A DNA stretch of 2,895 nucleotides, taken from a virus (lineage: Duplodnaviria > Heunggongvirae > Uroviricota > Caudoviricetes). The stretch's first letter is position 1. The number at the start of each line of letters is the position of its first letter. The DNA is taken from IMG/VR virus record IMGVR_UViG_648276660_000017. The stretch is one strand, 5' to 3'. Shown in pieces: positions 2,109 to 2,895 of the stretch. A model generated the notes under the pieces. That model searched no databases and was not told where the DNA came from. It saw only the letters and a list, made by a program, of their open reading frames with translations. A program made the position numbers and the translations under genes.

Positions 2109-2351
2109 ATGTTCTCTCTGATTCAACGTGGTCAGATATACACCGATAGCGCTGGCTATCCAGTAAAAATCATTCGTAGTACTGATCACTCAGTATTCTT
2201 CAAGAGGATGGATGGCTATCCTGGAAGAGTGTGCATCAGAAAATTCAATAATTTATTCGAACACATTGATCACAGAGAATATCACCAGATCCTGGCTGAA
2301 ACAGAACAGGAGAACCATCTGAAAAAATTACGTGCTATGCAAAGGAGATAA
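2109..2351 (+). CDS. Hypothetical 80-aa protein (possibly DUF4222-like) in an AT-rich moron-like pocket
   Basis: ORF in frame +3, ATG 2109, with GGGGA at 2096-2100 about 8 nt upstream; stop TAA 2349-2351. Translation: MFSLIQRGQIYTDSAGYPVKIIRSTDHSVFFKRMDGYPGRVCIRKFNNLFEHIDHREYHQILAETEQENHLKKLRAMQRR. The pattern G-x2-Y-x-D-x2-G ... V-x-F-x-R-x2-GY ... C ... F resembles small DUF4222-type phage proteins found near integrases, but this is recalled and unverified. GC is lower than in the upstream genes (about 37% in a 60-nt hand-counted sample, against about 53% in a sample of the DUF550/551 gene). Confidence 0.65.
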   Translation: MFSLIQRGQIYTDSAGYPVKIIRSTDHSVFFKRMDGYPGRVCIRKFNNLFEHIDHREYHQILAETEQENHLKKLRAMQRR

Positions 2352-2400
2352 ACCGGTAAAGGTGTTCGCGATAAAGGTGAATATCGGCAATGAATAACAA

Positions 2401-2430
2401 TCCTCGCACTCGCGGGGATTTCTTTTATCT
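2401..2430 (+). terminator. Hairpin plus U-tract (terminator- or attenuator-like), first of a tandem pair
   Basis: Inverted repeat tcctcgc (2401-2407) / gcgggga (2412-2418) with 4-nt loop actc: 7 bp including one G-U wobble at 2404/2415. Followed by tttcttttatct (2419-2430). Confidence 0.35.
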
Positions 2431-2458
2431 GAACTCGCTACGGCGAGTTTTGTTTTAT
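2431..2458 (+). terminator. Hairpin plus U-tract (terminator- or attenuator-like), second of a tandem pair, immediately upstream of the 55-aa gene RBS
   Basis: Perfect inverted repeat aactcgc (2432-2438) / gcgagtt (2443-2449) with 4-nt loop tacg, extendable by a G-U pair at 2431/2450. Followed by ttgttttat (2450-2458), which runs into the GGAG at 2459-2462. Confidence 0.4.
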
Positions 2459-2469
2459 GGAGATGATAA

Positions 2470-2637
2470 ATGCACTTCCGAGTCACAGGTGAATGGAATG
2501 GAGAACCATTCAACAGAGTTATCGAAGCAGAGGACATCAACGACTGCTATAACCACTGGATGATATGGGCGCAGATAGCGCATGCAGACGTAACCAATAT
2601 TCGAATTGAAGAACTGAAAGAACACCAAACCGCCTGA
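2470..2637 (+). CDS. Hypothetical 55-aa mini-protein (absent from the supplied ORF track, probably below its length cutoff)
   Basis: ATG 2470 in frame +1 with GGAG at 2459-2462 (7-nt spacer); stop TGA 2635-2637 sits in the loop of a strong intrinsic terminator hairpin. My translation: MHFRVTGEWNGEPFNRVIEAEDINDCYNHWMIWAQIAHADVTNIRIEELKEHQTA. Composition is balanced and protein-like. I believe I have seen near-identical hypothetical proteins next to xis/int in enterobacterial prophages, but cannot name a family. Confidence 0.6.
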   Translation: MHFRVTGEWNGEPFNRVIEAEDINDCYNHWMIWAQIAHADVTNIRIEELKEHQTA

Positions 2638-2650
2638 TGGCGGTTTTTTA
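2627..2650 (+). terminator. Rho-independent terminator downstream of the 55-aa gene and upstream of xis
   Basis: Perfect 8-bp stem aaaccgcc (2627-2634) / ggcggttt (2639-2646) with 4-nt loop tgat and a GC-rich core (ccgcc/ggcgg), followed by a run of six T (2644-2649). The hairpin followed by a T-run is oriented for + strand transcription. Confidence 0.7.
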
Positions 2651-2694
2651 TTGCCTGATTTGCAGGTTCGATTCCCTATTCGGAGATAGCACTC

Positions 2695-2895
2695 ATGCAA
2701 CACGAACTACAACCTGATTCACTGGTTGATTTGAAATTCATCATGGCCGATACTGGCTTCGGTAAGACCTTCATCTATGACCGGATTAAGTCCGGCGACC
2801 TGCCTAAAGCCAAAGTTATCCACGGGCGAGCAAGATGGTTATATCGTGATCATTGTGAATTCAAAAATAAGCTCTTAAGCCGCGCCAATGGGTAA
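2695..2895 (+). CDS. xis: Excisionase / AlpA-family helix-turn-helix DNA-binding protein, 66 aa
   Basis: ATG 2695 with GGAG at 2682-2685 (9-nt spacer); stop TAA 2893-2895 is the last triplet of the window. Translation: MQHELQPDSLVDLKFIMADTGFGKTFIYDRIKSGDLPKAKVIHGRARWLYRDHCEFKNKLLSRANG. The segment IMADTGFGKTFIYDRIKSG followed by a basic wing (GRARWLYRDHCEFKNK) has the layout of AlpA/Xis-type small winged-helix proteins. Position at the distal end of an early-left-type operon is where lambdoid phages place xis, just before int. Confidence 0.7.
   Translation: MQHELQPDSLVDLKFIMADTGFGKTFIYDRIKSGDLPKAKVIHGRARWLYRDHCEFKNKLLSRANG

Follow-up and report, generated by a model that had tools for sequence, protein, structure and literature searches.

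The best described relatives of the element analyzed here are annotated or predicted terminators from the early-left operons of lambdoid phages. In the GenBank record of phage HK022 (X51962), a misc_feature at 2417..2445, comprising 29 nt (aatcctcgcattcgcggggatttctttta), carries the label 'tL4 terminator'. For phage lambda, an ARNold analysis of the exo–xis region by Bloch et al. (2014; PMC4195576, Table 4) yielded, among others, the predicted terminators t3 (−11.4 kcal/mol), t4 (−9.2 kcal/mol), and t5 (−11.2 kcal/mol), the last of which is the hairpin after orf55; each of the three was detected by both Erpin and RNAmotif. The HK022 'tL4' label is an annotation, and the lambda t3 and t4 entries are predictions. 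Lambda tL3, which is located just downstream of exo, is a working terminator used in CRIM cloning vectors. Judging from the same position just downstream of exo, the sequence listed as t1 by Bloch and co-workers is probably tL3.

We analyzed a 2,895-nt stretch of viral DNA (the window), the right part of which is 100% identical to the E. coli MS 198-1 chromosome (locus L002). In MS 198-1, a LexA-family repressor gene is followed by N, ral, cIII, kil, recombination genes, ea22-like genes, a dATP/dGTP pyrophosphohydrolase gene, a DUF4222 gene, a 55-aa gene, and torI/xis, all on one strand; Pfam and PHROGs scans agreed with the annotated gene identities. A lambda-type nutL (boxA CGCTCTTA, boxB GCCCTGAAGAAGGGC; L002 1383-1412) lies just upstream of N (L002 1523-1849), which indicates that the operon is of the N-antiterminated kind. 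The two hairpins described below (L002 8360-8411) are on the same strand as nutL and N and downstream of both, within the early-left unit, i.e., in the location typical of the tL series. No integrase gene follows torI/xis in the annotated neighborhood of the MS 198-1 prophage, and 3′ of the window (L002 8656-9400) the csc sucrose genes come after a short fragment of DUF4942, indicative of a truncated prophage remnant. The window is the tail of an N-antiterminated early-left (pL) operon of this lambdoid prophage remnant. Its relevant features are as follows.

2109-2351, plus strand: DUF4222 gene, stop codon at 2349-2351.
2352-2397, plus strand: 3′ remnant of an ASCH-domain gene, non-coding, TAA stop at 2395-2397; first 46 nt of the spacer.
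2399-2420, plus strand: hairpin 1 (H1), AAUCCUCGC-ACUC-GCGGGGAUU; 9-bp stem including one G.U pair, loop ACUC.
2421-2430, plus strand: U-rich tract of H1, UCUUUUAUCU.
2431-2450, plus strand: hairpin 2 (H2), GAACUCGC-UACG-GCGAGUUU; 8-bp stem with a terminal G.U pair, loop UACG.
2451-2458, plus strand: U-rich tract of H2, UGUUUUAU, directly abutting the Shine-Dalgarno sequence.
2459-2462, plus strand: Shine-Dalgarno sequence GGAG, 7 nt 5′ of the ATG at 2470.
2470-2637, plus strand: 55-aa gene, equivalent of lambda orf55 (lambdap35); phrog_676, function not assigned.
2627-2652, plus strand: third hairpin (2627-2646) with its U tract, equivalent of lambda t5.
2695-2895, plus strand: torI/xis.

The spacer between the open reading frame ending at 2351 and the ATG at 2470 extends over 2352-2469 and has the length of 118 nt given in the preliminary description of this DNA. 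Its first 46 nt align with the 3′ end of the ASCH-domain gene in HK022 and Min27, and ORF04 of Min27 ends at the TAA equivalent to window 2395-2397. The joint of this remnant with the DUF4222 gene falls exactly at the DUF4222 stop codon (GATAAACCGG; window 2347-2398). The spacer owes its length to this remnant, and the 118-nt gap is fully explained by the gene remnant, two terminators, and a ribosome-binding site. A complete ASCH-domain gene is found in HK022, in Min27, and in many prophages of E. coli.

Two consecutive 7-bp stem-loops, each with a U-rich tract, of which the second was said to run into the ribosome-binding site of the 55-aa gene, had been noticed previously in this spacer. Both are present, and their cores even extend: from 7 bp at 2401-2418 to 9 bp in the case of H1, and from 7 bp at 2432-2449 to 8 bp in the case of H2. 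The adjacency of the second U tract to the GGAG was likewise borne out. GGAG is unpaired in the dominant (centroid) fold and is common to several unrelated downstream genes. Folding of each hairpin, which had been recommended as a check for weak stability, yielded −12.6 kcal/mol (z = −5.1) for H1 and −11.5 kcal/mol (z = −4.7) for H2, while a 66-nt region with both hairpins reached −25.0 kcal/mol (z = −5.9); in all three cases 0 of the 200 shuffles were as stable.

Both hairpins have the build of intrinsic terminators. Their stems and loops fall within the range expected for such elements (G+C-rich stems of ~5–14 bp, loops of 3–8 nt), their tails, counted from the last stem U residues, are U-rich (UUUCUUUUAU for H1 and UUUUGUUUUAU for H2), and they are positioned on the transcribed strand of a 118-nt intergenic gap in an operon whose genes are all on the plus strand. 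A consensus terminator scan called H1 and H2, both on the plus strand, and reported 10 terminator-like sites in the window vs. 2.2 ± 1.5 in shuffled sequences. As the stems are short, with only 5–6 G-C-rich pairs, each hairpin alone may terminate only partially. We also observed that the two terminator units share CUCGC (2403-2407 and 2434-2438), GCG(A/G)G, and the tail TTT(C/G)TTTTAT (2419-2428 and 2449-2458) at a spacing of 30–32 nt, a hint at an old tandem duplication. Such an origin of the two hairpins was not retained: Tandem Repeats Finder detected none, and only the U tracts repeat, at 30-nt spacing.

The comparison with lambda and HK022 identifies the element. The hairpins in these two phages are 97–98% identical to the window copies, and the near-identity begins ~8 nt 5′ of H1, spans H1, H2, orf55, and the third hairpin, and stops a few bases past the U tract of the latter. 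The feature labeled tL4 in HK022 is H1 with its U tract, so that homology to a named member of the tL series was found. The two copies have the sequence AATCCTCGCA(T/C)TCGCGGGGATTTCTTTTA in common, and the HK022 hairpin, too, comes 1 nt behind the ASCH-domain stop codon and ahead of H2 and orf55. They differ by one loop substitution (C2409T) and in the preceding gene, which in the window is cut to the 46-nt remnant behind the DUF4222 gene; furthermore, the HK022 record annotates the first hairpin only. In lambda both sequence and order match, with t3 (H1; 29356-29335, complement), t4 (H2; 29324-29305, complement), orf55 (29118-29285, complement), and t5 following one another. The differences here are the upstream gene, which is ea8.5 with its stop codon 17 nt before H1, and two substitutions, namely C2422A in the U tract of H1 and A2446G in H2, where a U-A pair becomes U-G. 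H1-H2 is one more copy of a known element, for which an annotation (HK022) and predictions (lambda) were already on record. With lambda tL3 it shares no sequence homology, and tL3 is a single hairpin just downstream of exo. Yet, tL3 too is a strand-specific terminator composed of a hairpin and a U tract inside the same N-antiterminated operon; in the t1 sequence, the probable tL3, the hairpin is comparable, and the tail UUUCUGUUAU is of similar composition and no more U-rich than the tails in the window.

Taken together, it is highly probable that H1 and H2 are tandem rho-independent terminators in the distal part of the N-antiterminated early-left (pL) operon and represent the same element as HK022 tL4 and lambda t3/t4. 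Of the three roles offered, with no preference, for the hairpins in the preliminary description, namely tandem intrinsic terminators within an antitermination-dependent early operon, an attenuator or riboregulator of the downstream mini-gene, and the 3′ end of a small RNA, it is the first that is upheld, by nutL and N upstream, the HK022 tL4 label, and the ARNold predictions for lambda; the other two are not supported (see below). Beyond the observed hairpin anatomy, homology, and operon context, the established behavior of lambda tL/tR terminators suggests how the element would work. RNA polymerase not modified by N at nutL would release its transcript in the U tract of H1, at ~2421-2428. Any polymerase escaping there would face H2 30 nt further on and, past orf55, the third terminator. 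In this way, neither unmodified nor stray transcription would reach orf55 or the excisionase gene, an insulating role by analogy. N-modified polymerase, on the other hand, would be expected to read through all three terminators, and expression of orf55 and xis would hence be N-dependent.

Two successive hairpins whose arms are in part interchangeable also precede genes controlled by attenuators of the trp/leu leader-peptide or riboswitch type, where they have a different role. Accordingly, H1-H2 could be an attenuator or riboregulator of the 55-aa gene that switches between mutually exclusive folds, each arm of H1 pairing crosswise with the opposite arm of H2 (left with right and right with left). 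Complementarities of 5 bp indeed exist, as had been pointed out earlier for CUCGC (2403-2407) and GCGAG (2443-2447), close relatives are compatible with them, and the second U tract adjoins the ribosome-binding site. The cross-hairpin complementarity follows from the core CUCGC...GCG(A/G)G common to both hairpins. The claim that it would allow mutually exclusive folds did not hold. When the left H1 arm was forced onto the right H2 arm, so that the two remaining arms nested with each other, the energy of this alternative was −19.7 kcal/mol vs. −26.3 kcal/mol for the two-hairpin fold, i.e., 6.6 kcal/mol weaker. In the ensemble, the pair probability of the alternative was ~1e-5, while the inner-stem pairs of H1 and H2 were at ~1.0. 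Moreover, H1 is complete before H2 is transcribed, and the Shine-Dalgarno sequence stays unpaired in the dominant fold. Unlike known attenuators, the spacer contains neither an aptamer family recognized by Rfam nor a leader ORF that has its own ribosome-binding site; its only ATG (2390) has no Shine-Dalgarno sequence, and the frame runs into orf55. Neither comparably stable exclusive folds, nor a sensing element, nor a consistent association with one gene was found.

The comparative data point in the same direction. For these we gathered loci via Orf55 and via the H1 pattern and added several annotated phage records, and the sampling is biased accordingly. The set contained 216 instances of a ~70-nt block with the hairpins, 148 of them unique. 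In phages of E. coli and Salmonella the block is followed by at least ten unrelated genes. After it comes orf55 in lambda, HK022, and the window, ORF03 in Min27, gp34 in Salmonella phage Oslo, ORF27 in Salmonella phage 146851_sal4, an antirepressor gene in VT2phi_272, where H2 is without a U tract, and another gene in Stx2_EH1965, which has H1 only. A block preceding at least ten unrelated genes is not a regulator specific to orf55. The genes upstream vary as well (ea8.5, ASCH-domain gene, EaA, DUF4222); where the upstream gene is EaA or that for the ASCH domain, its TAA stop is located 1 nt 5′ of H1.

Among the sampled H1 copies with enough flank to be classified (n = 116), ~103 were accompanied by H2 and ~13 stood alone. 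At orf55 loci H2 is nearly constant, and the H1 slot is at times filled by other sequence. In one of them (L024) the slot holds a different hairpin, AACCCGC-cgagu-GCGGGUU, before the same U tract. The replacements rejoin at or within ATTTCTTTTATCTG in the U tract of H1 (2421-2430), which was the commonest recombination joint among the mosaic variants. These variants, whether with H1 only, a different H1, or H2 without a U tract, can discriminate between the folds, since all of them abolish the alternative pairing and keep terminator-like hairpins. Given the negligible alternative fold, the unrelated downstream genes, and the phages with one hairpin, we regard an attenuator or riboregulator of the mini-gene as very improbable.

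Results of the covariation analysis, which had been proposed for homologous loci, gave no such discrimination. In an alignment of 52 distinct copies 98.3% of the cells were paired, and one double-sided change only was found, at pair 2435:2446 with the states U-A, U-G, and C-G. Covariation was not significant, with 273 of the 500 shuffles doing as well for these 52 copies; the copies are too similar for it to discriminate between the folds. The alternative pairing was equally compatible with the close relatives, as the arms share the core CUCGC/GCG(A/G)G. Variation among homologous copies resides mostly in the loops, the U tracts, and the outermost pair. All variants present in at least four loci are structure-neutral and leave the inner stems paired; the recurrent types are loop changes, U-A to U-G at 2435:2446, C-G to U-G at 2436:2445, and changes of the outermost A-U pair. 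Rare single-copy variants break inner pairs. Nucleotide diversity was 0.005 in the inner stem of H1 and 0.089 in its loop, compared with 0.062 at third codon positions of orf55; the stem-vs.-loop contrast is in the expected direction, but the sites are too few for significance.

Searches revealed the block in 2456 of the 5426 complete E. coli genomes (~45%), in up to six copies per genome, and in 316 phage records, including 55 of Salmonella phages. In those E. coli genomes no annotation specific to the hairpins was found, the match being either unannotated or overlapped only by the end of the upstream ASCH-domain gene. This distribution also bears on the reading of the hairpins as chance inverted repeats without function. 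It could draw on the statistically uninformative covariation; with a fold z of about −5 and 0 of the 200 shuffles as stable, two adjacent canonical terminators on the sense strand of an intergenic gap, and a block conserved across mosaic contexts and in 45% of complete E. coli genomes, its probability is practically negligible.

The mosaic contexts show a further property of the element. The ~70-nt block, at 95–100% identity, is joined to ~28 classes of upstream and ~15 classes of downstream sequence in E. coli and Salmonella phages, and it is a conserved intergenic junction where phage gene modules are exchanged. It could then have been kept mainly as a homology patch for lambdoid module swapping, with terminator activity being secondary, an explanation compatible with termination. 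The high identity amid so many flanking classes, joints located at the block edges or inside the first U tract, and the inheritance of either hairpin alone are consistent with this. Homology patches, however, need no hairpins with U tracts, and the occupation of the H1 slot in L024 by another hairpin of terminator type suggests that structure, and not sequence identity, is under selection; in addition, the sampling was biased, as the loci were picked through orf55 or H1. We therefore find a predominant role as a homology patch rather unlikely. The use of the block as an exchange junction is the probable explanation for the adjacency of two terminators, which may simply result from joining of modules that carried one terminator each. 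A broader proposal, to which we give somewhat more weight though it is tentative, combines both functions: the two terminators with GGAG might constitute a portable, selectively maintained lambdoid linker that provides insulation and, at the same time, a near-identical homology patch for shuffling accessory genes upstream of xis/int (orf55, ea, ASCH-domain, DUF4222, antirepressors) between E. coli and Salmonella phages, its tandem form being derived from two one-terminator modules.

Hairpins with U tails are also typical of the 3′ ends of small RNAs, and pathogenic E. coli carry numerous prophage-encoded sRNAs that are bound by Hfq. H1 or H2 could in principle be the Hfq-binding terminator of such an sRNA or of a regulatory fragment derived from a 3′ UTR. 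The idea of a small-RNA 3′ end, raised in the preliminary description, found little to lean on: a simple consensus scan revealed no sigma-70-like promoter anywhere in the window (processing-derived sRNAs need none), the best Rfam matches in the spacer reached only 20–21 bits vs. gathering thresholds of 47–56, no prophage sRNA has been described at this site, and the sequence 5′ of H1 differs between phages, so that there is no conserved seed. On these grounds we consider the sRNA explanation improbable, although a fragment derived from a 3′ UTR is conceivable. At permissive Rfam thresholds, Leu_leader, rimP, and rsmX (in the spacer) as well as STnc130 and STnc420 (around the third hairpin) came up and were rejected as sub-threshold matches driven by terminator shape. 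Similarly, the known prophage sRNAs HnrS/EcOnc10-12, AgvB, AsxR, and StxS were discarded as candidates; they belong to the late region near PR′.

H1-H2 thus does not constitute a new riboregulator; the E. coli prophage remnant carries another, ordinary copy of a known element. That the lambda-like exo–xis region ends with a cluster of three predicted intrinsic terminators around orf55 is confirmed, which adds little new. About 45% of complete E. coli genomes contain this cluster without its being annotated, a finding useful for annotation, and the cluster bears on why orf55 and xis should need N antitermination. A mildly interesting point is the recurrence of the block as a junction between swapped gene modules.

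The third terminator of this cluster has features of its own. The stop codon of orf55 lies within the loop of the third hairpin, and a terminator is predicted here on both strands. In P22, the homologous hairpin carries an annotation as terminator of aI, an antisense RNA (L233 6399-6419). Rfam STnc130 was matched weakly, but at full length, by 2745-2618 on the minus strand of the window (31 bits; gathering score, 55), so that an antisense RNA covering the beginning of xis is conceivable. We also noted that orf55 together with its own terminator (window 2463-2652) looks like an inserted cassette with the edges TTTTATGGAG and TTTTATTGGAG. The gene located 3′ of the orf55 terminator in HK022 (L001 ~480-560) directly follows H2 in other phages (class D8), and in P22 (L233 6380-6470) only about the last 45 nt of orf55 and the terminator are kept.

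Scanning of genome contigs for Orf55 returned, in non-enteric assemblies, almost only lambda-identical contigs and brought no gain in diversity. Orf55 at lambda-level identity was present in assemblies of Shewanella, Chromatium, Pseudomonas, Oceanobacillus, Kitasatospora, Bradyrhizobium, and others (loci L086-L106). Several of these contigs are ~48.4–48.5 kb long, the same as the lambda genome, and the lambda-identical Orf55 in non-enteric assemblies looks like contamination with lambda DNA.
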